Notes: generated by a model from the sequence alone, not told the origin. Shown: positions 12,130-59,433, numbered from the stretch's first letter. The stretch is 64,000 nucleotides of DNA from Candidatus Omnitrophota bacterium (GCA_030681595.1 JAUXSB010000008.1:25587-89586); one strand, 5' to 3'. Numbers and translations are program-made.

Positions 12130-13029
12130 ATGGGTTTATTAGTAATTCTTGCTTTGGGTTTTATTATCGGCGTTGTATTTGTAAACACGGCTAAAACCGG
12201 TTCAATAAAGCCGATAGTAGTTACTACATTTATTGGTTTATTTATCGGGATTATTCTTGCTTCAGTAAGGGTTGTCCCTGCCGGTTATGTAGGAGTAGTA
12301 GATTTCTTTGGCCACGTATCAGAGCGTCACTTAAATAGCGGGATTAGTTTTATTAATCCCTTGGCAAAGGTAATTAACCTTTCAGTGCGCACGCAAGAAG
12401 ATAAAGAAACGATGAATGTACCTTCTAAGGAAGGGATGAATGTTGCTTTGGATGTTTCAATCCTCTATAGGCTTGAACCGGCTAAAGCGGTGGATGTTTA
12501 TAAAACCATAGGCCCGTATTATCAGGATGTAATTTTAGTCCCTCAATACCGGGCAGCGGCCAGAGGGGTCACGGTCGCGCATGAATCAAAGGCGTTATAT
12601 ACTTCTGAGCGTGAAATGCTCGCCCAAGCCATACTCGATTCCTTAAGAAACCTTATCGGTGATAGGGGTGTTATTATTGAAAGGGTTTTACTTAGGGCGA
12701 TAACGCTTCCGGTGATAGTAAGCGGAGCAATAGAACAAAAGCTGAAAGCTGAGCAGGAAGCCGAAAGAATGAAATTTATTTTACAGCGTGAAACGCAGGA
12801 AGCCGAAAGGAAACGCGTTGAGGCGGCAGGTATCCGTGACGCGCAGACGATAATTAACCAGAGTTTAACTGCGCAGTATTTACATTATCTTTGGATAAGT
12901 ACGCTCAATCAGAACCCGAATGTAATTTATGTGGCAACCGAGGCAAATATGCCTCTTGTTAGGGCGATAAATCCGGATGAAGAAAATTTGCGCAAGAAAC
13001 CTCTTACGTTAAGAGAACAGAAAGAATAA
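12130..13029 (+). CDS. SPFH/band-7 (prohibitin/stomatin-like) membrane protein
   Basis: An N-terminal TM segment is followed by an SPFH-like domain and an Ala/Glu-rich coiled coil (KLKAEQEAERMKF...). Confidence 0.7.
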   Translation: MGLLVILALGFIIGVVFVNTAKTGSIKPIVVTTFIGLFIGIILASVRVVPAGYVGVVDFFGHVSERHLNSGISFINPLAKVINLSVRTQEDKETMNVPSKEGMNVALDVSILYRLEPAKAVDVYKTIGPYYQDVILVPQYRAAARGVTVAHESKALYTSEREMLAQAILDSLRNLIGDRGVIIERVLLRAITLPVIVSGAIEQKLKAEQEAERMKFILQRETQEAERKRVEAAGIRDAQTIINQSLTAQYLHYLWISTLNQNPNVIYVATEANMPLVRAINPDEENLRKKPLTLREQKE

Positions 13030-13056
13030 AATAACCGCTTTTAAAACCATCATTAA

Positions 13057-13203
13057 CCCCGTTAGAGATAACAGCTATTACTAATAAGCAGGGCTTGGTA
13101 AATTACGGAAGCATAAATTTTATCAGTGAGATTTGTAAAGAACAGACGCCCCGAAGCTTCGGGGCTATCCCCGCCAGACAGAAGTCGGGCTGGTCTAACG
13201 GGG
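13057..13203. repeat. MITE-like element, family A (termini ccccgttagag... / ...tctaacgggg), copy 1
   Basis: Termini are inverted repeats. Internal hairpin cgccccgaagcttcggggc is present. Core ccccgccagacagaagtcgggctgg sits at 13168-13193. Related copies lie at 37134 and 51415. Confidence 0.55.
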
Positions 13204-13221
13204 TAAATCCTGCCTAAAATT

Positions 13222-16200
13222 ATGTTTTGGCATATTGAAGTAAAAGAAAAACGCGGCATCTTTGATGCAGTCGGCGAAGGTGTCAAAAAAGATATCTTTG
13301 ACTTAGGAATCAAATCCGTCCGTAAAGTTAGCTTTATCCAAGTTTATTCTATTGAAGGCGATTTAGCTCAAGCGGAAATCAGACGGATCTGCGAAGAATT
13401 ATTAACCGACAAAATTACCCAGGAATATTTTATTAACCGGCCAACCGGCAGGCCACAAGGCCGTGGTTTGGCCTCCGATGGCCAAAGCCACAAACCGGCC
13501 AACCGGTCAACCGAATTCGTGATTGAAGTCGCTTATAACCCCGGAGTAATGGATCCTGTGGAGGGTTCAGTAAAAAAGGCGATTTTGGATTTGGGAATAA
13601 ACAGAATAAGTAGCCTGCATACGGCGAAGAAGTACGTTATTTACGGCAGGCTTTCCAATGCTCAAATTAAAACTATCCGCGGTAAATTATTAGTAAATAA
13701 AGTAATACAACATGCCGTAACCGGCGCATCTAAAGGAGCTGAGGGAAGTGATTCGGGATATAAATTTCAGTTAGTGAGTGTTGATTTATTAAGCGCATCG
13801 GATAAAAAATTGCAAAAAATCAGCCGGGATGGGCAGTTATTTTTAAATCTTACCGAGATGCGCGCGATAAAAAAATATTTCAGCCGCCTTAAGAGGAACC
13901 CGACAGATGTGGAGCTGGAAACTTTAGCACAGACTTGGTCAGAACATTGCGTGCATAAGACGTTTAGGGGAAAGATAGATTATAAAAGAGTCACCAGTCA
14001 CCCCCGCCAGAACGAAGTCGGGCTGGAGTCATCAGTCACCAGAAGAAAAATTAATAACTTGCTTAAATCCACGATAATGAAGGCAACAAAAGAGCTGAAT
14101 AAGCCGTGGTGCGTTTCGGTGTTTAGTGACAATTCCGGCGTCATTGAATTTGACGAAAATTTTGATGTCTGTTTTAAAGTAGAGACGCATAACCATCCAT
14201 CAGCCCTTGAGCCGTTCGGCGGAGCAAATACCGGAATAGGCGGAGTAATCAGGGATCCGTTAGGCACAGGCTTGGGGGCAAAGCCAATTTTTAATACCGA
14301 TATATTTTGTTTTGGGCCGCCGGATTATCCTGTTTCAAAGCTGCCTAAGGGCAGCCTTCATCCAAAAAGGATTGCAAAGGGTGTAGTCAGCGGCGTGCGT
14401 GATTATGGCAACAAAATGGGCATTCCTACCATAAACGGCGCTGTTTTGTTTAGCGAGGGTTATATAGCAAATCCTTTAGTCTATTGCGGGACCGCCGGCT
14501 TAATCCCGAAGGACAAAGTTTTTAAAAAGGTAAATTCCGGAGATTTGATTGTAGTCATAGGCGGAAGGACCGGCAGGGACGGTATCCATGGCGCAACTTT
14601 TTCTTCCGGCGAGTTAACTCATGAATCCGAAAGCGTTTCCGGAACAGCTGTGCAAATAGGCAATCCGATTACCGAAAAAAAGATGTTGGATACCCTGCTT
14701 AAGGCGCGCGATAAAAATTTATATAATGCGATTACTGACTGCGGCGCGGGGGGGCTTTCCAGCGCGGTAGGAGAGATGGGTAAAGATTTGGGGGCAGTGG
14801 TTTATTTAGATAAAGTACCCCTAAAATATAGCGGCCTTGCTTATGATGAGATATGGATTTCAGAAGCACAGGAAAGGATGGTCCTGGCGGTAGATAAAAA
14901 AAACATAGGCGAATTACTTGATATTTTTGCTTCCGAAAATACAGAAGCAACTGTAATAGGCGAGTTTGGGCAGGATAAAATGCTCAAGCTTTTCTATCAG
15001 GATAATTTAGCCGGGGAATTGGAGATGGGTTTTCTGCATGAAGGGGTTCCTCTTTCTGTCAAGAAAGCCATAAGTGCAAAGCGTAATTTAAAAGAGCCGT
15101 ATTTAGCGGAGAAAAAAGATTTAACAGTAACTTTAAAAAAAGTGCTTTCTGATTACAACGTTGCCAGTAAAGAATGGGTGGTGCGCCAGTATGACCATGA
15201 AGTGCAGGGTTCGTCCGTTTTAAAACCGCTGGTAGGTATAAATAATGATGGCCCGTCGGATGCGGGGGTTGTGCGGCCCGTTTACTCGTCTAAAAAAGGC
15301 TTGGCTGTTTCCTGCGGCATAAACCCGCGCTATGGAGAGATATCTGCCTATTGGATGGCGGCATCCGCTATTGATGAGGCGCTGAGAAATATCGTCTCTG
15401 CCGGAGGCAATTTAGAGCGCACAGCGATTTTAGATAATTTCTGCTGGGGCAATCCGGATAAGCCGAACCGGTTAGGAACGCTCGTTGATGCGGCTTTTGC
15501 CTGCTATGATTTTGCCAAATATTTTGGAGTGCCGTTTATTTCCGGGAAAGACAGCTTATATAACGAATATAACGTAAAAGGAAAAAGTATCGCCATACCG
15601 GGGACGCTTTTGATCTCGGCAATTTCTGTAATGGAGGATGTAACAAAGGCCGTTTCAATGGATATCAAAAAGCCCGGAAATCTGATTTATATCGCAGGAG
15701 AGACCAAAAATGAATTAGGTGGTTCGGTTTATTATAAATTGTATGATTATTTGGGCGCTAATGTGCCGCAGGTGGATAGAAAAAAATCCAAGGGAATTAT
15801 GCAAGCATTGAGCCGTGTAATAGCCGAAGGTTTAGTAAGGTCAGCCCATGATTGTTCGGAGGGCGGATTAGCGGTTAGTTTAGCAGAGATGTGTTTTGCC
15901 GGAGGATTTGGCGCCGAAGTATTTTTGAGCGAAGTGCCGTATCAAGCCGCAAGCTTCAAGCTTCAAGCTTCAAGCTTCAAAGCCTGCAGCCTGCAGCCTG
16001 CAGCTGTTCGCAATGACATAATTTTGTTTTCGGAGTCAAACACGCGGTTTGTGGTAGAGATAGAAAAGAAAAATCAGAAGGTGTTTGAGAAGGCAATGCA
16101 GGATGTACCGTTGGGCCTTATCGGCTGCGTGTCTGGCGGCAAAGTGTTAGATATTTATGGGCTTGACCGCAAAATATGCGTCAGGGCGGATATCAACGAG

Positions 16201-16236
16201 TTGAAAGAGGTATGGCAGGCGCCATTGAGGTGGTAA
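13222..16236 (+). CDS. purL: phosphoribosylformylglycinamidine synthase, PurS-PurS-PurL fusion (tandem PurS domains fused to FGAM synthase II)
   Basis: Residues 1-80 and about 110-180 are each PurS-like. The remainder is PurL (AIR-synthase-related repeats). The gene also carries in-frame repeat insertions (see findings). Confidence 0.85.
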   Translation: MFWHIEVKEKRGIFDAVGEGVKKDIFDLGIKSVRKVSFIQVYSIEGDLAQAEIRRICEELLTDKITQEYFINRPTGRPQGRGLASDGQSHKPANRSTEFVIEVAYNPGVMDPVEGSVKKAILDLGINRISSLHTAKKYVIYGRLSNAQIKTIRGKLLVNKVIQHAVTGASKGAEGSDSGYKFQLVSVDLLSASDKKLQKISRDGQLFLNLTEMRAIKKYFSRLKRNPTDVELETLAQTWSEHCVHKTFRGKIDYKRVTSHPRQNEVGLESSVTRRKINNLLKSTIMKATKELNKPWCVSVFSDNSGVIEFDENFDVCFKVETHNHPSALEPFGGANTGIGGVIRDPLGTGLGAKPIFNTDIFCFGPPDYPVSKLPKGSLHPKRIAKGVVSGVRDYGNKMGIPTINGAVLFSEGYIANPLVYCGTAGLIPKDKVFKKVNSGDLIVVIGGRTGRDGIHGATFSSGELTHESESVSGTAVQIGNPITEKKMLDTLLKARDKNLYNAITDCGAGGLSSAVGEMGKDLGAVVYLDKVPLKYSGLAYDEIWISEAQERMVLAVDKKNIGELLDIFASENTEATVIGEFGQDKMLKLFYQDNLAGELEMGFLHEGVPLSVKKAISAKRNLKEPYLAEKKDLTVTLKKVLSDYNVASKEWVVRQYDHEVQGSSVLKPLVGINNDGPSDAGVVRPVYSSKKGLAVSCGINPRYGEISAYWMAASAIDEALRNIVSAGGNLERTAILDNFCWGNPDKPNRLGTLVDAAFACYDFAKYFGVPFISGKDSLYNEYNVKGKSIAIPGTLLISAISVMEDVTKAVSMDIKKPGNLIYIAGETKNELGGSVYYKLYDYLGANVPQVDRKKSKGIMQALSRVIAEGLVRSAHDCSEGGLAVSLAEMCFAGGFGAEVFLSEVPYQAASFKLQASSFKACSLQPAAVRNDIILFSESNTRFVVEIEKKNQKVFEKAMQDVPLGLIGCVSGGKVLDIYGLDRKICVRADINELKEVWQAPLRW
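13434..13512 (+). repeat. in-frame repeat insertion in purL inter-PurS linker (direct repeats aaccggccaaccgg flanking an inverted repeat gtggtttggcc/ggccaaagccac)
   Basis: Seen directly in the sequence. It encodes the low-complexity peptide NRPTGRPQGRGLASDGQSHKPANRSTEF. Confidence 0.5.
13990..14042 (+). repeat. in-frame insertion in purL: agtcacc heptamer repeats flanking the family-A core cccccgccagaacgaagtcgggctgg
   Basis: The core is near-identical to the intergenic core at 13168-13193, with flanking gtcaccagtcacc / agtcatcagtcaccag. Confidence 0.5.
15950..16003 (+). repeat. in-frame tandem heptamers in purL: (caagctt)x4 then (cctgcag)x3
   Basis: Seen directly; encodes ...ASFKLQASSFKACSLQPAA... 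Confidence 0.6.
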
Positions 16237-16902: not shown

Positions 16903-17696
16903 CCAAGCCTAAAGCCTTAATTCTGCGTACCGCAGGGACAAATTGCGACAAGGAGACAAAGTTTGCCTTTGAGTTGGCGGGTGCCGCGGCAGAGCTTGTG
17001 CACATAAATGAAATTATAAAAGGCAGCGTTAAATTGTCTGATTATCAGATTTTGGCTCTGCCGGGAGGTTTTTCTTACGGCGATGATGTCGCCGCAGGAA
17101 AAATTTTGGCAAATGAGCTAAGGTTTAAAATGAGGGAAGATTTGAGCGGGTTCATCAAAGAGGGCAAACTTATTATCGGCATCTGTAACGGTTTTCAAAT
17201 TTTAGTCAAGGCAGGAATTTTACCGGGGAACGATGGTTTTGAGCAGGAGGCAAGCCTGATTATTAATGATTCAGGAAAGTTTGAAGACCGCTGGGTGTAT
17301 TTACGGGTTACGGGTTATGGGTTACGGGATACGAACTGCGTATGGACAAAGGACTTAGCGGAGATAGTATACCTTCCGGTGGCGCATGGGGAAGGAAAAT
17401 TTATTACAAAAGATAAGGCGGTTTTAGAAGGGTTGAAAAAGAATGGACAAATTGTTTTTCAGTATTGCGATAGGCAAGGGAGCTTAACCGGATACCCGGA
17501 CAATCCTAATGGTTCAGTGGATAATATTGCGGCAATTTCTGATAAGGCTGGCAGGATTTTTGGGCTTATGCCGCATCCCGAGCGCCACATTCTTGGGACA
17601 CAGCACCCGCGCTGGACGCGCCAAGGTTTAAAAAAATATGGCGATGGATTAGCAATTTTCCGTAACGGAGTAGAATATGCGAAGAAAAATCTCTAA
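16899..17696 (+). CDS. purQ: phosphoribosylformylglycinamidine synthase glutaminase subunit PurQ
   Basis: Class I glutamine amidotransferase with catalytic 'GICNGFQIL' and a His near 'PHPER'. Confidence 0.85.
   Translation: MTKPKALILRTAGTNCDKETKFAFELAGAAAELVHINEIIKGSVKLSDYQILALPGGFSYGDDVAAGKILANELRFKMREDLSGFIKEGKLIIGICNGFQILVKAGILPGNDGFEQEASLIINDSGKFEDRWVYLRVTGYGLRDTNCVWTKDLAEIVYLPVAHGEGKFITKDKAVLEGLKKNGQIVFQYCDRQGSLTGYPDNPNGSVDNIAAISDKAGRIFGLMPHPERHILGTQHPRWTRQGLKKYGDGLAIFRNGVEYAKKNL
17300..17330 (+). repeat. in-frame tandem heptamers in purQ (gggttacgggttatgggttacggg)
   Basis: Seen directly; encodes RVTGYGLRD. Confidence 0.6.
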
Positions 17697-19143: not shown

Positions 19144-20154
19144 ATGGCAAAAATAACTTATAAAAAATCCGGCGTAGATATTGGAGAAGCAGGTATTTTT
19201 AAGAATAAAATAAAGTCTTTGGTTCGGGAATCTTTCCGGCCTGAGGTCTTAAAGGATATCGGCGGATTCGGCAGTTTTTTTAGTTTCCCTAAAGATAAAT
19301 ACAAAGAACCGGTTTTGGTTTCATCTTCTGACGGTGTAGGCACAAAGCTAAAGATTGCTAGTTTAGTAAATAAACACGATACCATCGGTATTGATGCCGT
19401 AGCAATGAATGTAAATGATATTCTTTGTGTGGGCGCTGAGCCGTTGTTTTTTTTGGATTATATCTCCTATAGCAAGGTAGATTCCGGTGTGCTTATCGAT
19501 ATAGTAAAAGGCCTAAACCGCGGATGTATTGAGGCGGGTTGTTCTTTGGTGGGAGGCGAGACCGCTCAAATGCCCGGTATGTATAAGCAGGATGAATATG
19601 ATGTAGCCGGTTTTTGCGTCGGGGTAGTCGAGCGGAAGAATGTAATTGACGGCGCTAAAATTTCAGCCCGTGACGTTGTTATCGGTATAGAATCAAGCGG
19701 CCTGCATTCCAACGGCTATTCTTTAGTGCGTAAAGTTTTCTCTAAATCCGAGCTCATCCGTTATTCAGGGGAACTACTTATGCCTACCCGTATCTACGTT
19801 AAGCCTATTTTATCTTTGTTAAGGGTTAAGGGTTACGGGTTAAGGGTTAAGGGTATCGCGCATATCACCGGTGGAGCGTTCTACGATAAAATCGCGCGTA
19901 TCCTGCCGGATAATGTAAATGTCCGAATTAATAAGGATTCCTGGCCTGTGCCGAAAATCTTTAAACTTATCCAGAATAAAGGCGGGATCGCTGAGAAAGA
20001 AATGTACCATACCTTGAATATGGGCATTGGTTTGGTTTTGATAGTTGAGCCGAAAGCAAAAGAAGCCGTAATCTCGAAATTGGCTGAATTTAAGCTTAAG
20101 TCTTGGGCTATCGGTGAGGTCACCAAAGGTAAAAAAGAGGTTGAGATAGTTTAA
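19144..20154 (+). CDS. purM: phosphoribosylformylglycinamidine cyclo-ligase (AIR synthetase)
   Basis: PurM family; the N-terminus carries 'GGFGSFF' and 'DGVGTKL'. Confidence 0.9.
   Translation: MAKITYKKSGVDIGEAGIFKNKIKSLVRESFRPEVLKDIGGFGSFFSFPKDKYKEPVLVSSSDGVGTKLKIASLVNKHDTIGIDAVAMNVNDILCVGAEPLFFLDYISYSKVDSGVLIDIVKGLNRGCIEAGCSLVGGETAQMPGMYKQDEYDVAGFCVGVVERKNVIDGAKISARDVVIGIESSGLHSNGYSLVRKVFSKSELIRYSGELLMPTRIYVKPILSLLRVKGYGLRVKGIAHITGGAFYDKIARILPDNVNVRINKDSWPVPKIFKLIQNKGGIAEKEMYHTLNMGIGLVLIVEPKAKEAVISKLAEFKLKSWAIGEVTKGKKEVEIV
19818..19854 (+). repeat. in-frame tandem heptamers in purM (gttaagg gttaagg gttacgg gttaagg gttaagg)
   Basis: Seen directly; encodes LRVKGYGLRVKG. Confidence 0.6.
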
Positions 20155-21859: not shown

Positions 21860-23199
21860 GAATTTTAGTTATTGGTTCCGGCGGCAGGGAGCATGCGCTG
21901 GTTTGGAAAATAGCGCAGTCGAAGTTGGTAGATAAGATTTTTTGTGCGCCGGGAAATGCCGGGATTTCCGATTTGGCGGAGTGTGTTGATATAAGGCCTG
22001 AAGATATCCCGGCACTGATAGATTTTGTGCGCCGGGAAAAAATTGATTTAACCGTTGTCGGCCCGGAGGCACCGCTTTCTTTGGGCATAGTTGACGAGTT
22101 TAACAATTATAAGCTAAAAATATTCGGCCCAAATAAAAAGGCAGCGAAGCTCGAGGCAAGCAAGGTATTTGCCAAGCAAATGATGGCAAAATATAAAGTG
22201 CCGACCGCGGATTTTAAAATCTTTACCGATGCCGAAGAGGCAAAAAAATATATCGATAAAATTGGCCCGTCTTGCGTAGTTAAGGCAGACGGTTTGGCTA
22301 GCGGCAAGGGAGTAGTGGTAGCTAAAACTATTAATGAGGCAAAAGACGCAGTTACCTCAATGATAGAAGAGAAGATTTTTGGCGATGCCGGTAATAGAAT
22401 TATTATTGAGGAATGTTTAGAAGGCGCGGAGGCATCGATATTAGTTTTAACTGATTCGAAAGAAGTTATCCCTCTTGCGTCAGCCCAGGACCATAAAAGA
22501 ATTTTTGATAAGGATCAAGGCCCGAATACCGGCGGGATGGGGGCTTATTCGCCCGCGCCCGTAGTAACAAATGAATTATTCAACGAAATTTTAGATAAGG
22601 TTGTATATCGTATAATCGACGGTTTGATAAAAGAAGGGATAGATTATCGCGGCGTATTATACGCCGGGATTATACTGACTAAAGAAGGACCGAAAGTATT
22701 AGAGTTTAATGTGCGTTTTGGCGATCCCGAGACGGAAGCGATATTGCCGCGCCTATCGTCTGATTTAGTAGAGGCAATGTTGGCAACAGCCGATGGCAAA
22801 TTGACTAAGTTCAAAAAATTCGGCGGCCTTAATTGGGATAGCCGCGCCTGCGTTTGTGTTGTCTGCGCTTCCGGAGGATACCCGGGAAAGTATGAAAATG
22901 GAAAAGAAATTTTTGGTTTGGATGAAGCGGCAAAGATGAAAGATGTGGTAGTCTTTCATGCGGGAACTAAAAAGTCACCAGTCACCAGTCATACCCTTAC
23001 GGGCACAGGCCAGTCACCAGTAAAATATTTTACGAATGGCGGAAGGGTTTTGGGGGTGACGGGGTTAGGTAATATTATAAAAGAGGCAGTAGATAAAACC
23101 TATAAGGCTGTAGATAAAATTAGCTTTGAGGGGATGAATTACAGGAAAGATATAGGATATAAAGCGATAGCAAATATTAAAAATCAAATATCAAAATAA
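21856..23199 (+). CDS. purD: phosphoribosylamine--glycine ligase
   Basis: N-terminus 'MRILVIGSGGREHAL' and an ATP-grasp fold. Confidence 0.9.
   Translation: MRILVIGSGGREHALVWKIAQSKLVDKIFCAPGNAGISDLAECVDIRPEDIPALIDFVRREKIDLTVVGPEAPLSLGIVDEFNNYKLKIFGPNKKAAKLEASKVFAKQMMAKYKVPTADFKIFTDAEEAKKYIDKIGPSCVVKADGLASGKGVVVAKTINEAKDAVTSMIEEKIFGDAGNRIIIEECLEGAEASILVLTDSKEVIPLASAQDHKRIFDKDQGPNTGGMGAYSPAPVVTNELFNEILDKVVYRIIDGLIKEGIDYRGVLYAGIILTKEGPKVLEFNVRFGDPETEAILPRLSSDLVEAMLATADGKLTKFKKFGGLNWDSRACVCVVCASGGYPGKYENGKEIFGLDEAAKMKDVVVFHAGTKKSPVTSHTLTGTGQSPVKYFTNGGRVLGVTGLGNIIKEAVDKTYKAVDKISFEGMNYRKDIGYKAIANIKNQISK
22974..23021 (+). repeat. in-frame insertion in purD: (agtcacc)x2-3 flanking ccttacgggcacaggcc
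   Basis: It uses the same heptamer (agtcacc) as the purL insert at 13990. It encodes SPVTSHTLTGTGQSPV just before the conserved GGRVL. Confidence 0.5.
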
Positions 23200-27629: not shown

Positions 27630-28058
27630 ATGGTTGAGATGGAGCTAAGCAAAATTATCATCGACGAGAAAAGGCATGATCAGGTGATTGTTTTGAAAGA
27701 AAAGTCCGGCGGCCGCCTTCTCCCTATTGTTATCGGGATAACCGAAGCAGCAGCCATAAAAATGCAGCTTGCCGGAGTCTATCCTCCGCGGCCGATGACT
27801 CACGATTTGCTTAAGACAATACTAGAAGATTTAGACGCGCACGTAGATAAAATTATTATTGATAAATTAGAAGAGAATACTTTTCACGCAAAAATTGTAA
27901 TCACTTTAGAGGGTAAGGTTAAAATAATTGATTCTCGTCCTTCTGACAGTATTGCTCTTGCGGTAAGGACAAAATCGCCCATATTTGTAGAAGACGAAGT
28001 GTTGAATAAGGCTAATCCTTTTGGTGAAGTGGACATTCACGATGATCCCTCTTCATGA
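27630..28058 (+). CDS. bifunctional nuclease family protein (DUF151/BFN)
   Basis: Contains the motifs 'LPIVIGITEAAAI' and 'RPMTHDL'. Confidence 0.65.
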   Translation: MVEMELSKIIIDEKRHDQVIVLKEKSGGRLLPIVIGITEAAAIKMQLAGVYPPRPMTHDLLKTILEDLDAHVDKIIIDKLEENTFHAKIVITLEGKVKIIDSRPSDSIALAVRTKSPIFVEDEVLNKANPFGEVDIHDDPSS

Positions 28059-28059
28059 A

Positions 28060-29496
28060 ATGAAAAAAAATCCTTTTTTTGGCGTTATTTTAAAGCTTGC
28101 GGAATTAAACAGGCGCAAGGTTTATCTTGTCGGAGGGTACCTGCGTGATTTGTTTTTAAAGCGCAAAAGTTTTGATTTTGATTTTGCGGTGGATAAGGGA
28201 GCTATAAAATTTTCGCGCTCTATCGCCGAAAGGCTCAAAGGCGATTTTGTTGTTTTGGATAAAGAGCATGGTTCAGCGCGGGTTATTGTAAAAAAAGAAA
28301 ATACGAGTTACACTCTTGATTTTACAGATTTCCGCGGCAGGGATATAAACGAAGATCTATCGCTGCGTGATTTTACTATTAATGCGATGGCGCTAGATTT
28401 AAGTTGCCTGAAAAATGCCGCTAGCGAAGAGTTTATTGACCCTTATTCGGGAAAAAGCGATATAAAAAAAGGGCTGATTAAGGTAATTAACAACAGGGCG
28501 TTTTGCGATGACCCTTTGAGGATATTGCGTGTATTCAGCTTATCCGCAGTATTAAAATTTAAAATAGACGGCGAGACGCTTAAGCTCGCCCAGGAAAATA
28601 AAGATGGGATTTTTTCGGTTTCTTCTGAAAGGATAAGGGAGGAACTGTTTAAAATTTTAGCCGTGCCGAATGCGGCCGATTTTTTTAAAAAGATGGATAG
28701 TTTGTCTATACTGGAAAAAATTATCCCGGAAGTAAATATAATGCGTGATATTCAGCAGGGGCCGTATCACCATTTAGATGTTTTAGAGCATTCTTTTGAG
28801 GCGATGAGCCAGATTGAAAAATTATTTTCTGAATTAAAGCGCAATAAAAAAGTATCGGTTTATTTAGACGAAATTATCGCTGCGGAGCATTCACGCAGGC
28901 AAGTTTTAAAACTTGCCGTTTTTTTACACGATATAGGCAAACCCGATGCCATAACCTTTGAAGAGGGCAAAACAAAATTTCACGGACATGAACATATCGG
29001 CAGGCGCCTTGCATCCGCAGTTTGCGATAGGCTTAAGCTTTCCGGTAAAGAAAAAGATGCGATAAAGGCGATGATATTGTGGCATCTTCGCCCCGGTTAT
29101 TTAGCCGATAACCCCGATATAAGCGAGCGGGCGATATTCAGGTATTTTCGCGACACGGATAGCGAAGGTGTGAGTATCCTGCTTTTGTCTATGGCAGACC
29201 AACGATCAACCCGCGGCCCTTTAACTGTCAAGGCAAGCAGAATAAGGCATGAAAAGACCTGTCTCTGGTTGATAAAAGAGTATTTCCGGCGTAAAGAAGA
29301 GAAGAAATTGCCTAAGATAATTACCGGCGATGATTTGATGGAAAAGCTTAAGCTTGTTCCCGGCCCGGTGTTTGGAAAAATTTTAGATAAGGTGGAAGAA
29401 GAGCAGGCGGCAGGGGAAATAACTACTAAAAAGGAAGCTTTGGAATTAGCCCGCCAAATAGCAGCCGGGCATGTAAAGAAAATAGTAAAAACATAA
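28060..29496 (+). CDS. cca: CCA-adding enzyme / tRNA nucleotidyltransferase with HD domain
   Basis: PolyA-polymerase head 'LVGGYLRDL' with 'DFDFAV'. HD domain with 'FLHDIGKP'. Confidence 0.8.
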   Translation: MKKNPFFGVILKLAELNRRKVYLVGGYLRDLFLKRKSFDFDFAVDKGAIKFSRSIAERLKGDFVVLDKEHGSARVIVKKENTSYTLDFTDFRGRDINEDLSLRDFTINAMALDLSCLKNAASEEFIDPYSGKSDIKKGLIKVINNRAFCDDPLRILRVFSLSAVLKFKIDGETLKLAQENKDGIFSVSSERIREELFKILAVPNAADFFKKMDSLSILEKIIPEVNIMRDIQQGPYHHLDVLEHSFEAMSQIEKLFSELKRNKKVSVYLDEIIAAEHSRRQVLKLAVFLHDIGKPDAITFEEGKTKFHGHEHIGRRLASAVCDRLKLSGKEKDAIKAMILWHLRPGYLADNPDISERAIFRYFRDTDSEGVSILLLSMADQRSTRGPLTVKASRIRHEKTCLWLIKEYFRRKEEKKLPKIITGDDLMEKLKLVPGPVFGKILDKVEEEQAAGEITTKKEALELARQIAAGHVKKIVKT

Positions 29497-37132: not shown

Positions 37133-37133
37133 A

Positions 37134-37253
37134 CCCCGTTAGAGATGATGTTTATCACTGTAAGGCGGAATTTGACAATTACTGAAATGCAGAGTTTATT
37201 AGTAGGCTTACAATTATTAGATGGTCACCTGCGGTGGCCTATCTCTAACAGGG
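37134..37253. repeat. MITE-like element, family A, copy 2 (ccccgttagagatg ... ctatctctaacaggg)
   Basis: 14-bp terminal inverted repeats with one mismatch. An internal near-palindrome ggtcacctgcggtggcc is present. Confidence 0.55.
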
Positions 37254-37263
37254 TAAAAAATCG

Positions 37264-37291: not shown

Positions 37292-37442
37292 TTTTACTTC
37301 GCGTGCTTTAATTTTTTAAAATGAGGAAAAGATGAACCCCATTAGACCTCTGTGAGGTTAGCGGGATTTTGAAATATGGCGTTTGTGAGGTTGTAAATAG
37401 ACAATTTAGAAAAAGATACTTATTTTAGGGAGGTCTAACGGG

Positions 37443-37994
37443 GTGAAGGAAATCCGTATTCATGCCCGCGCAGGGCAGGGGGCGATAACAACAGCCGAGA
37501 TTCTTGGGCAGGCTTATTTTCAGGAAAATAAGTTTGCCTATGCCTTTCCGCATTTTGGCGCAGCACGTATGGGCGCTCCGATGAATGCCTTTGTGCGCGT
37601 GGATGAAAATCCGATAAGGCTAAGAAGCCAGGTGACCCAGCCTGATTATTTAATAGTTGCTGATCCTACCTTAATAATGCGCGGTTTTGATTGTTATTCT
37701 GGTTTTAAGGCGGATGGTATCGCGGTAATCAATACCAAAGAGGGTTTGGATATTCCGCAGCCTAAAGGAAAGCAAAAGATTTATCTAGTTCCAGCCAATG
37801 ATATTGCGATGAAGACAATCGGCAGGCCATTAGGCAACACGGTCTTGCTAGGTGCTTTTTCCGCGGCAACCAAAGAGATAAAATTGGAATCGCTTAATCA
37901 ATCAATAAAAGAAAGATTTTCCGGTAAAACCGCAGATTTAAATATTGAAGCGGCAAAACAGGGCTACGATTACATAAAGTCCGGTAAAACCTAA
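37443..37994 (+). CDS. porG: pyruvate/2-oxoacid:ferredoxin oxidoreductase gamma subunit
   Basis: GTG start. 'RAGQGAITTAEILGQA' is a POR gamma motif. Confidence 0.85.
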   Translation: MKEIRIHARAGQGAITTAEILGQAYFQENKFAYAFPHFGAARMGAPMNAFVRVDENPIRLRSQVTQPDYLIVADPTLIMRGFDCYSGFKADGIAVINTKEGLDIPQPKGKQKIYLVPANDIAMKTIGRPLGNTVLLGAFSAATKEIKLESLNQSIKERFSGKTADLNIEAAKQGYDYIKSGKT

Positions 37995-47622: not shown

Positions 47623-48030
47623 ATGGAGATAACTGAGGTAAGGGTTTTCTTAAAAGATGACGAGGATAAAAAGCTAAAGGCATATGTTACCGTTACGTTT
47701 GACAATGCCTTCGTAGTGAGGAATATTAAAGTGATTGAGGGCTCCAGCGGTTTATTTATCGCCATGCCTTCAAGAAGGATTAAACAGCCTTGTTCTAAGT
47801 GTAATTTTAAGAATGAACTGCGCAGTAAATTCTGCAATCAATGCGGCGGGCAGTTATCGGTAAATACCCAGCCCGTTTCTTCAGAGGATAATAGGCAGGC
47901 AGAGCATAAAGATATCGCCCATCCCATTACCCAAGGTTTCCGGGAGCAGCTTCAAAAGAAAATATTGGATGCATACCAAAAAGAAAAAGCAGGTTCGGGT
48001 ACAGGTTCAAGCTTGCATAACTTAGGTTAG
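47623..48030 (+). CDS. spoVG: SpoVG family protein with C-terminal zinc-ribbon extension
   Basis: N-terminus 'MEITEVRVFLKDDEDKKLKAYVTVTFDNAFVVRNIKVIEG' is classic SpoVG. The extra ~40 aa carry 'CSKCNFKN...CNQCGG'. Confidence 0.8.
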   Translation: MEITEVRVFLKDDEDKKLKAYVTVTFDNAFVVRNIKVIEGSSGLFIAMPSRRIKQPCSKCNFKNELRSKFCNQCGGQLSVNTQPVSSEDNRQAEHKDIAHPITQGFREQLQKKILDAYQKEKAGSGTGSSLHNLG

Positions 48031-49564: not shown

Positions 49565-49608
49565 AATAAAATTCTTCTGGCCTGTGCCCGGCAGGGTATT
49601 ACTGTAAT
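49565..49608. repeat. short repeat family B, copy 2 (inverted orientation)
   Basis: The reverse complement gaaaccagattacagtaataccctgccgggcacaggccagaa matches 43481-43522. Confidence 0.5.
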
Positions 49609-51353: not shown

Positions 51354-51414
51354 CGGTAATACCGCGCCTTTGCCAAGGCAGAGAAGAAAAGTAGGTTGAT
51401 ATATGCGGGGCTTA

Positions 51415-51455
51415 CCCCGTTAGAGATAGCCCCGAAACCTCGGGGCGTCTATAGC
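51415..51455. repeat. MITE-like element, family A, truncated copy 3 (ccccgttagagatagccccgaaacctcggggcgtctata)
   Basis: It shares the left terminus and the ccccgaaRcYtcgggg hairpin with copy 1. Confidence 0.45.
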
Positions 51456-52419: not shown

Positions 52420-52905
52420 ATGGCTAATTTAAACAAGGTATTGATTATCGGTAATTTAACCAAGGATCCGGAGCTGCGCTATACACCTGGCGGCATGGCC
52501 GTGGTTAACTTAAGAGTTGCTACCAACAGGCGCTTCAAGGATAAAAATGGGGAACAAAAAGAAGAGGTTTGTTTTATTACGGCAGTTGTTTGGGATAAGC
52601 AGGCAGAGGCGTGCAATCAGTATTTAAGGAAGGGAAATCCTCTGTTTATTGAGGGTAGGCTGCAGTCGCGTTCTTGGGATGCCCAGGATGGTTCAAAGCG
52701 CAATGTTATTGAAATTAGGGCTGAACGGGTACAGTTTTTAAATGTTCAAAAACAACAGGGCAAGGCATCTGATGAAACCGATAAGCCGGAGGGCGATGGT
52801 TTGACCTCCGATAGCCAAAGCCATGATTTTTCAGAAGAAGCAAAAGAACCTGAAGGGAATACGGGCGATAGCGCTACAACCGCGCCTTGGCCCGGAAGCG
52901 AATAA
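52420..52905 (+). CDS. ssb: single-stranded DNA-binding protein
   Basis: OB-fold N-terminus 'NKVLIIGNLTKDPELRYT' and an acidic C-terminal tail. Confidence 0.9.
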   Translation: MANLNKVLIIGNLTKDPELRYTPGGMAVVNLRVATNRRFKDKNGEQKEEVCFITAVVWDKQAEACNQYLRKGNPLFIEGRLQSRSWDAQDGSKRNVIEIRAERVQFLNVQKQQGKASDETDKPEGDGLTSDSQSHDFSEEAKEPEGNTGDSATTAPWPGSE

Positions 52906-58294: not shown

Positions 58295-59344
58295 ATGGAG
58301 CAGTTTAGGAAAACATTAACGGAAATAGCTAAAATTATTGACGGACAGGTTATCGGTAACAAGGATACTATTATTACGGGTATCTGCGGTATAAAAGAAG
58401 CAAAAAAAGGCGATTTGACTTTCGTGGCAAATCCTAAGTACTTGCCTTTGATTAAGCATACGCATGCCTCGGCTATTATTACTTCAAAAGAAATAGATTC
58501 GCTTTCTATGCCGATTATTCGGACCGAAAATCCATCGTTAGCGTTTGCTAAAATGGTATCCTTGTTGTCTCCTAATCATGTAATGCACCCTTCGGGCATA
58601 CATTCTACGGTTATCTTGGGTAAAAATGTAAAATTAGGCAAAGGTGTCGCTGTCGGCCCTTATGTGGTAATAGAGGATAATGTTGAAATAAGAGACAATA
58701 CGATTATATATTCCGGCTGCTATATTGGGCATCATTCGCTAGTCGGTAAAGATACCCTTATTTATCCTAATGTATCTATACGCGAGAGGATAGTTATCGG
58801 TAACCATGTAATAATTCATAGCGGTACAGTTATTGGATCTGATGGTTTTGGTTTTGCGACTGTTAGAGGTATGCATGAAAAAATACCCCAGATAGGCATA
58901 GTAGTAATTGAGGATAATGTTGAAATAGGCGCTAATGTTACAATTGACAGGGCGCGTTTTGATAAAACAATTATAGGTAAGGGTACTAAGATAGATAATC
59001 TAGTGCAGATTGCCCATAATGTGGTAGTTGGCGAGAATTCTATTATCGTAGCTCAAGCAGGAATTTCAGGCAGTACTGCTATAGGAAACGGCGTTATTCT
59101 GGCAGGGCAATCCGGTATAGTCGGCCATGTTACTATCGGCGATGGCGCGGTAGTTGCGGCTCAGGCAGGGGTGACAAAATCAGTGCCGGCAAACACAAAA
59201 GTTTCAGGTTATCCTGCCAAGCCTCACAATATCGCCAAGCGTGTAAACGCGTGTGTGCAAAATTTGCCGAATCTCCTTAAGACAGTTAATGAACTAAAAC
59301 AAAGAATTGCTAGTTTAGAAGCCCGTCAGAATGGAGCCGGGTAG
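58295..59344 (+). CDS. lpxD: UDP-3-O-acylglucosamine N-acyltransferase
   Basis: Left-handed beta-helix hexapeptide repeats. It lies in the lpx cluster. Confidence 0.9.
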
Positions 59345-59433
59345 GCCCGCCTGACTCCCGCCCGACCGAACGTCGTTCGGGCGCGGTCATTCGGGCAGGC
59401 CCCGTCAAAATGAGGCTGGGCAGGGAGAGCTGA

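Follow-up and report, generated by a model that had tools for sequence, protein, structure and literature searches.

A discrete 24-nucleotide mobile element hosted by a MITE-like element and by a heptamer array within purL of Candidatus Omnitrophota

Introduction

Cyanobacteria of the family Nostocaceae carry small dispersed repeats (SDR1-8; Elhai et al. 2008, Genome Res 18:1484), reportedly units of 21-27 nt with exact ends that occur in heptamer arrays and in mini-transposons, are found nested and form small hairpins. The question of what mobilises SDRs has, to our knowledge, had no answer since 2008. Small GC-rich palindromic mobile units are also known from AT-rich genomes elsewhere, namely the GC clusters of yeast mitochondria and the double-hairpin elements of Allomyces, which are optional between strains and sometimes lie in genes. 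Two papers document the existence of SDRs, a precise insertion of SDR5 into HIP1 and a reported restriction to the Nostocaceae (PMC5861425, PMC4390886). Repetitive extragenic palindromic (REP) sequences are described as GC-rich palindromes of 21-65 bp (PMC3184786), and Rickettsia palindromic elements (RPEs; Ogata et al. 2000) as selfish palindromic DNA residing in frame in unrelated housekeeping genes (PMC10969869). Here we analyse a window of 64,000 nt, the whole stretch GCA_030681595.1 JAUXSB010000008.1:25587-89586 of a Candidatus Omnitrophota bacterium (positions are counted from its first nucleotide), in which the purL gene and a MITE-like sequence (MITE, miniature inverted-repeat transposable element) just upstream share a GC-rich core. 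We show that this core is a discrete 24-nt element that is independently mobile, hereafter element A, and that both the MITE and the heptamer arrays serve as hosts to it. Element A is among the smallest mobile DNA units seen.

Results

The purL gene of the window is a PurS-PurL fusion (purSL, 13222-16236, plus strand) of 1004 codons with array or insert sites at 13440-13510, 13989-14047 and 15942-16004, and its product matches, at 100% identity, a protein listed by NCBI as PurL in a Candidatus Omnitrophota metagenome-assembled genome (MAG). An earlier note on this DNA had reported that a 25-nt core is common to purL and to the intergenic sequence upstream, with two differences. Both copies were located, CCCCGCCAGAACGAAGTCGGGCTGG at 14002-14026 and CCCCGCCAGACAGAAGTCGGGCTGG at 13169-13193 (not 13168), and they differ at 2 of 25 positions, which are adjacent. 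The actual unit is exactly 24 nt long, CCCGCCAGA-NN-GAAGTCGGGCTGG: the extra 5' C of the 25-nt core is a heptamer letter in purL and a letter of the MITE terminal repeat in the intergenic copy. The purL copy (CCCGCCAGAACGAAGTCGGGCTGG, 14003-14026, plus strand; 32.4 bits with covariance model R1) is in frame within the open reading frame (ORF; translation context KRVTSHPRQNEVGLESSVTRRK) and encodes PRQNEVGL. The other copy (CCCGCCAGACAGAAGTCGGGCTGG, 13170-13193, plus strand), 833 nt away, is inserted in the right terminal inverted repeat of the MITE. No third copy with up to 3 mismatches is present in the 64-kb window (chance expectation 0.00 from 100 dinucleotide shuffles).

The MITE-like host (13056-13204, plus strand) lies in the spacer upstream of purL and comprises about 125 nt plus the 24-nt passenger, with terminal repeats ACCCCGTTAGAGAT ... 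ATC[A]TCTAACGGGGT and a subterminal hairpin at 13148-13165. Two family members without element A are available for comparison: a second copy at 37133-37254 (plus strand) and an end fragment at 51414-51446 (minus strand), which retains the terminal repeat and the subterminal hairpin GCCCCGA..TCGGGGC. The right end of both empty members reads hairpin-TATCTCTAAC(G/A)GGGT, and that of the 13056 copy reads GGGGCTATC(CCCGCCAGACAGAAGTCGGGCTGG)TCTAACGGGGT. Excision of the 24 nt joins GGGGCTATC to TCTAACGGGGT, giving the intact repeat found at 37241-37254 and, inverted, at 51414-51427. No cut other than this one, of exactly 24 nt, yields the complete 14-nt terminal repeat, and there is no duplication. 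Hence the core does not belong to the MITE, as the earlier note had it, but was inserted into it.

Several observations concern the MITE and its surroundings. A Logan contig (L001) breaks inside the 13056-13204 copy. A third, shorter MITE-like copy (ACCCCATTAGACC ... GGTCTAACGGGGT; 37338-37444, minus strand) stands beside the 37133-37254 copy, upstream of porG. The terminal repeat ACCCCGTTAGAGAT also occurs in a Scalinduaceae contig (L013, 3810-3823 and 7211-7224) and in Omnitrophica GWA2_41_15 (L015, 235-248), which suggests a repeat mobilome common to these phyla. Finally, a Band_7/SPFH gene (12130-13029) lies between purB and the MITE in the window, where a related genome (L002) has purB directly followed by purL; this rearrangement adjoins the MITE.

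Filled and empty alleles of murC are direct evidence that the 24-mer alone has been gained, or precisely lost, in nature. The filled alleles (L028 and L031) belong to a marine organism that NCBI names Flavobacteriaceae bacterium (several MAGs, contigs up to 310 kb). The 90% protein cluster of this MurC includes members that lack exactly PPERSRAG and otherwise match it, apart from a small number of scattered substitutions and differing start calls. Of the 14 contigs with the empty allele, three (L036-L038) had their DNA read. Over 60 nt to either side the empty allele matches the filled one exactly, and what it lacks is precisely CCCGCCAGAACGAAGTCGGGCTGG, the empty junction being GTTGAGCG|CAGTCGAAAC; over 4.8 kb the alleles are 98.6% identical. 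The target is not duplicated, and any flanking repeat is at most 1 nt long. Each of the two alleles is present in many independent assemblies. The exact ends of element A, CCCGCC...GCTGG, are thus defined three times independently, in the MITE, in purL and in murC.

In purL, the element is hosted by a heptamer array: two AGTCACC units precede it (13989-14002, plus strand) and AGTCATC AGTCACC follow it (14027-14040, plus strand), before a degenerate AGAAGAA that ends at 14047. The earlier note had correctly seen heptamers on both sides, and had likened them to target-site duplications or footprints. We compared this site with purL of L002 (ENA, a 519-kb contig; purL DNA 83% and PurSL protein 84-87% identical) and of L003 (76% protein identity). 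In all three, the array site starts directly after a conserved HKTF(R/K)G(K/R)I.YK motif. It reads AAAAATC AAAAATC AAAAATC AAAATTA in L002 and AGTTACC AGAAAAC AGAAACC AGTAACC in L003, both without element A, and AGTCACC AGTCACC (24 nt) AGTCATC AGTCACC in the window, with element A exactly at a unit boundary. Arrays without the 24-mer, often with different units, also occupy matching positions of purL (C-terminus), purQ, purM and purD in both the window and L002. Because related purL sites carry arrays without element A, the heptamers are an older resident array and not footprints.

It could still be argued that a MITE-derived mobile class sends its core into ORFs and leaves AGTCACC heptamers behind as target-site duplications or excision footprints, which would account both for the core common to the MITE and purL and for the heptamers flanking the purL copy. 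We regard this as very improbable: the arrays of L002 (AAAAATC) and L003 (AGTTACC-type), like those of purQ and purM, contain no core; the copies in the MITE, in murC and in two further contigs (L013 and L027) have no heptamers; and the other MITE copies lack the core, which interrupts the terminal repeat where it is present. What survives of the earlier proposal is that one mobile sequence, tolerated in ORFs, links the intragenic insert to the intergenic repeat; its identification with the MITE does not.

The purL array site is hypervariable in length among 16 Omnitrophota orthologs, with invariant flanks. The SEHCxHK motif precedes it and the first conserved AIRS block follows it; the interval between the two has 52 residues here versus 11 in T. 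maritima PurL, and the site falls in a segment without counterpart in small PurL structures. An AlphaFold2 model of PurSL (16-sequence alignment) had a mean predicted local distance difference test score of 42.5 and was not used. More broadly, distantly related Omnitrophota (L002, L003, L034, L035) carry in-frame heptamer or octamer arrays at matching loop positions of purL, purQ, purM and purD, the corresponding sites in the window being 13989-14047, 15942-16004, 17301-17333, 19818-19854 and 22973-23020. The units differ between genomes (TTACGGG versus GTCAAAA in purQ) and the length is roughly kept, which looks like concerted turnover of arrays inside essential genes.

Element A also occurs in other genomes. 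A scan of one genome per GTDB species with the query CCGCCAGANNGAAGTCGGGCTG gave 18 matches, of which six have the complete CCCGCC...GCTGG. Three of these six lie on separate contigs of Omnitrophica GWA2_41_15 (L006, L015, L019); the rest are single matches in Ca. Scalindua rubra (L010), a Scalinduaceae MAG (L013) and an Ignavibacteriaceae MAG (L021), the last of which we treat as uncertain. The other 12 are incomplete, come from genomes of 52-67% GC and were taken as chance matches; three of them encode the FtsH motif FDRQIEVGLP. A metagenome scan with the full pattern added 11 loci. The carriers of the full 24-mer comprise Omnitrophota-type contigs (in porG, dnaA, carB and lspA), two Scalindua genomes and other low-GC contigs. 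The strict pattern had no match in IMG/VR, where a loose pattern mostly returned generic CCCGCC/GGCGGG terminator stems of high-GC phages. All together, element A is found in about 13 independent contexts in other genomes besides the window pair. The murC host being a member of the Flavobacteriaceae adds a third phylum: the identical 24-mer is present in at least three, the Omnitrophota, the Planctomycetota (Scalindua) and the Bacteroidota (Flavobacteriaceae).

These copies bear on whether the resemblance in the window is a local event, an ectopic gene conversion or copy slippage between sites 833 nt apart that implies no general mobility. The earlier note had allowed for local conversion should the core occur at these two places only, and within 64 kb it does occur only at these two neighbouring places. 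We nevertheless give this explanation almost no credence, as the identical 24-mer, with the same borders, recurs in some 13 other contexts across several genomes and phyla and is polymorphic in murC.

The genomic settings of the copies are varied. Element A lies inside a CAGAATC array at the C-terminus of porG (L006), the window ortholog of which (37443-37994) has neither array nor element; in the inter-domain linker of carB, inside a TGTCCYC array (L019/L025); in the linker region of dnaA, nested in a sister 24-nt element (L015/L026); in lspA, nested in a sister element beside an intact copy of that sister (L033); and in intergenic hairpins, nested in the loop of an inverted sister element (L029/L030). 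An inverted, REPIN-like doublet was seen only in Scalindua rubra (L010). About half of the independent copies are in long ORFs, in both orientations and in four or more of the six possible frames. Orthologous copies persist between strains that are 89-95% identical, and in one pair (L024/L032) the element has 1 change in 24 against a flank divergence of 11%.

Identity across phyla and better conservation than the flanks, as in this last pair, might also point to a motif kept by selection for its function (a site bound by a protein, say, or a signal in structured RNA) and not to a selfish mobile sequence. Against this, element A occurs in at least four frames and both orientations of unrelated housekeeping genes, at a MITE end and nested in sister elements, and in murC it is dispensable, both alleles being common; we consider this explanation decidedly improbable.

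Element A has sisters of similar build. Element B is CCCGCCTGCCTTCAGTCGGGCAGG. Element D (CCCTTCGACTTCGCTCAGGGCAGG) occupies the same purL array site in L034 and L035, between 8-mer units, and also the purQ array of L034. Element E, of 27 nt (CCCGCCTGAATGAC..AGTCGGGCAGG), is found in L002 (11687-11713), in Scalindua rubra (L010, 706-732) and in L052 (933-958). Its L002 copy lies in purL, where the window and 14 further orthologs have an empty site; L052 is a phage-like IMG/VR contig with tail-fibre chaperone and integrase genes, and there element E stands between GGCAAAG heptamer units. A, B, D, E and their window relatives have the common frame CCC..C....(loop)....GGGC.GG, all members start with CCC, and the defined unit sizes, 24 or 27 nt, are all multiples of three. 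The nested copies of element A (L015/L026, L029/L030 and L033) sit in or at the loop of B-type sisters.

Within the window, a loose family pattern has four matches against 0.04 expected. Three diverged 24-nt relatives are clustered on the plus strand at 59322-59345, 59346-59399 (with a nested 30-nt insert) and 59401-59424, at the 3' end of ORF 58295-59344, to which the cluster gives its last codons and stop. Covariance model R1 detected no further relatives above noise in the window except a marginal, possibly decayed member at 29450-29473 (plus strand; end of ORF 28021-29496), a weak match of 18.2 bits and E 0.09. The AGTCACC array of purD (22973-23020, plus strand) holds a different GC-rich centre, CCCTTACGGGCACAGGCC (22994-23011). 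An intergenic relative of this centre, a possibility raised in the earlier note, does exist: CCCTGCCGGGCACAGGCC at 49579-49596 on the minus strand differs at 2 positions (0.01 expected).

Two further kinds of small insert were noticed. A GC-rich, hairpin-bearing stretch of about 33 nt, found at 13455-13490 and 52790-52823, encodes GRGLASDGQSH in the PurS-linker of purL and, in the same reading frame, GDGLTSDSQSH in the SSB C-terminal tail; this looks like a further family of small in-frame inserts. In the DnaA linker next to element A, two Omnitrophota strains that are 95% identical (L026 and L015) differ by a 45-nt GC-rich in-frame insertion, a further presence/absence polymorphism of a small element.

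Element A has a potential imperfect hairpin for which two alternative pairings fit about alike (about 82-86% paired cells each, with one compensatory event only), and the T-G (wobble) pairs of the proposed stem form only on the given strand. When the three nested copies were folded, the insertion point fell in or at the loop of the host hairpin, and array hosts were predicted to be unstructured. The window nest at 59346-59399 appears to be of similar build, and the murC site is not clearly a loop. The base preceding element A is a C in 8 of 14 contexts. A clustered regularly interspaced short palindromic repeat (CRISPR) was considered and rejected, no locus having spaced multiple copies, and a search of the window with Rfam returned three tRNAs only.

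Other features of the window lie apart from these sequences. A GmrSD-type restriction endonuclease gene (70-1839) occupies the window start. It is followed by two 34-nt direct repeats (GGA.TCCCTCCCTCTCCGCCA.TTT; 1998-2164) flanking a GC-rich stretch with hairpin potential (2043-2110) that has no Rfam or tRNA match. The Pfam match of a SpoVG homolog (47623-48030) has 82 positions but extends over 120 residues, suggesting an internal insertion.

Discussion

Taken together, the borders, the murC alleles, the dispersed copies with their varied frames and orientations, the nesting, the sister families at the same array sites and the excess of loose-pattern matches in the window lead us to conclude, with good though not full confidence, that element A is a non-coding, GC-rich mobile element of 24 nt, of the kind reportedly represented by small dispersed repeats, which is copied with exact ends and without target-site duplication. 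On this reading it landed twice in the window, independently, once in the right terminal repeat of the MITE and once between two units of a pre-existing AGTCACC array, which occupies a length-variable segment of PurSL. The element is eight codons long and its AC, CA and CC variants are stop-free in all six frames, so copies that land in tolerant protein loops survive as 8-residue peptide insertions. Movement may proceed as a single-stranded hairpin (DNA or RNA), acted on in trans by an enzyme whose gene lies elsewhere, with entry into transiently unpaired DNA such as unstructured tandem arrays or the loops of other small hairpin elements. We infer that element A has spread horizontally; the machinery or the elements may cross phylum boundaries, possibly on phages.

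Several observations weigh against this conclusion. The hairpin is imperfect and of modest stability (z-scores -0.4 to -2.3), and covariation between A and B comes down to a single compensatory event, in which A-U gives way to U-A at positions 7 and 22. No convincing target motif was seen in the 5' and 3' flanks, orientation shows no bias relative to GC skew, and neither a transposase nor a reverse transcriptase was found among the 10 poorly annotated window ORFs that were scanned. Freedom from stop codons is statistically ordinary, 47% of shuffles being equally stop-free. The copy count for the source genome covers the 64-kb window only. Lastly, the retention of orthologous copies at 89-95% identity implies that most copies are not very recent.

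The same observations bear on how the element might move. A REP/REPIN-type sequence, moved as single-stranded DNA by a REP-associated tyrosine transposase (RAYT; IS200/IS605-like Y1 transposase), would share the GC-richness and imperfect palindrome of element A, a size within the 21-65 bp REP range (PMC3184786), the lack of target duplication on insertion and the one inverted doublet of Scalindua rubra. However, copies are frequent inside ORFs, most are singlets, there is no 5' GTAG and no conserved 5' target tetranucleotide, a Y1 transposase is missing among the 10 scanned ORFs, and there is no strand bias relative to GC skew; we therefore judge a REP origin unlikely. Copying by way of an RNA intermediate, which is either reverse-transcribed or used as a template for repair, has reportedly been proposed for the small dispersed repeats of Nostoc. 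The wobble pairs confined to the given strand, the many copies in transcribed ORFs and a behaviour that parallels that of SDRs would fit with it. We doubt this route too, as element A is found in both orientations relative to host genes, carries no tail or other retro-signature, and is accompanied by no reverse transcriptase among the ORFs scanned.

A wider proposal, which we put forward tentatively and do not ourselves favour, is that elements A, B, D and E, the last of 27 nt, make up a superfamily of 24-nt 'nano-transposons' that some machinery would actively move, with exact ends and without target duplication. That machinery, or the elements, would pass horizontally between Omnitrophota, marine Bacteroidota and anammox Planctomycetota, perhaps on phages, and it would preferentially write 8- or 9-residue peptides into tandem-array landing pads in the loops of essential proteins.

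The mechanism has become tractable through the polymorphism in murC and the identity across phyla: a sharply defined unit that is polymorphic in an abundant marine bacterium and occurs across phyla makes comparative enzyme searches feasible. In streamlined uncultured bacteria, selfish insertions build up in frame at tandem-array sites of essential genes (purL, dnaA, carB, murC), which matters for gene annotation, for protein-family alignments and for the origin of new protein loops. A full-text search returned no paper linking Omnitrophota with heptamer repeats, the top matches for Scalindua repeat elements were unrelated, and we found no description of very small mobile repeats outside the Nostocaceae in the searchable literature.

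How, then, does element A compare with known systems? Like bacterial MITEs, it is non-autonomous and has inverted termini (10 nt, 8 of 10 complementary); in contrast to them, it has no target-site duplication at the defined junctions, measures 24 nt against about 50-500 bp, and itself inserts into a MITE. REPs and REPINs are likewise short GC-rich imperfect palindromes without target duplication and reach high copy number. They are extragenic, start with GTAG, usually form inverted doublets and flank a RAYT gene. For element A none of this was seen beyond the one doublet, a RAYT gene having been sought among the 10 scanned window ORFs. The mitochondrial GC clusters and double-hairpin elements differ in residing in organelle genomes, in their length of about 30-80 nt and in their sequence and target rules. 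With RPEs, element A has in common its in-frame residence in housekeeping genes, where the protein tolerates the stretch of peptide that it adds; with about 100-150 bp, RPEs are some five times longer, and they are confined to Rickettsia, whereas element A is found in several phyla.

The closest likeness is to the SDRs as they are reported. With 24 nt, element A falls within the 21-27 nt class and has exact, reproducible ends in the MITE, the purL array and murC. It occurs in the arrays of purL, porG (L006) and carB (L019/L025) and in a MITE (13170), and elements D and E are found in arrays too. There are nested insertions (L015/L026, L029/L030, L033 and window 59346-59399) and a small hairpin potential, and recent mobility of the SDR type is displayed here by the filled and empty murC alleles. 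The sequence is apparently different. The hosts are Omnitrophota, Planctomycetota (Scalindua) and Bacteroidota, not cyanobacteria, with an identical 24-mer across phyla; and element A resides in frame in the essential genes purL, dnaA, carB, murC and lspA, with a documented natural filled/empty polymorphism. Since its hosts lie outside the Nostocaceae, element A would be of the same kind as the SDRs without belonging to a described SDR family.

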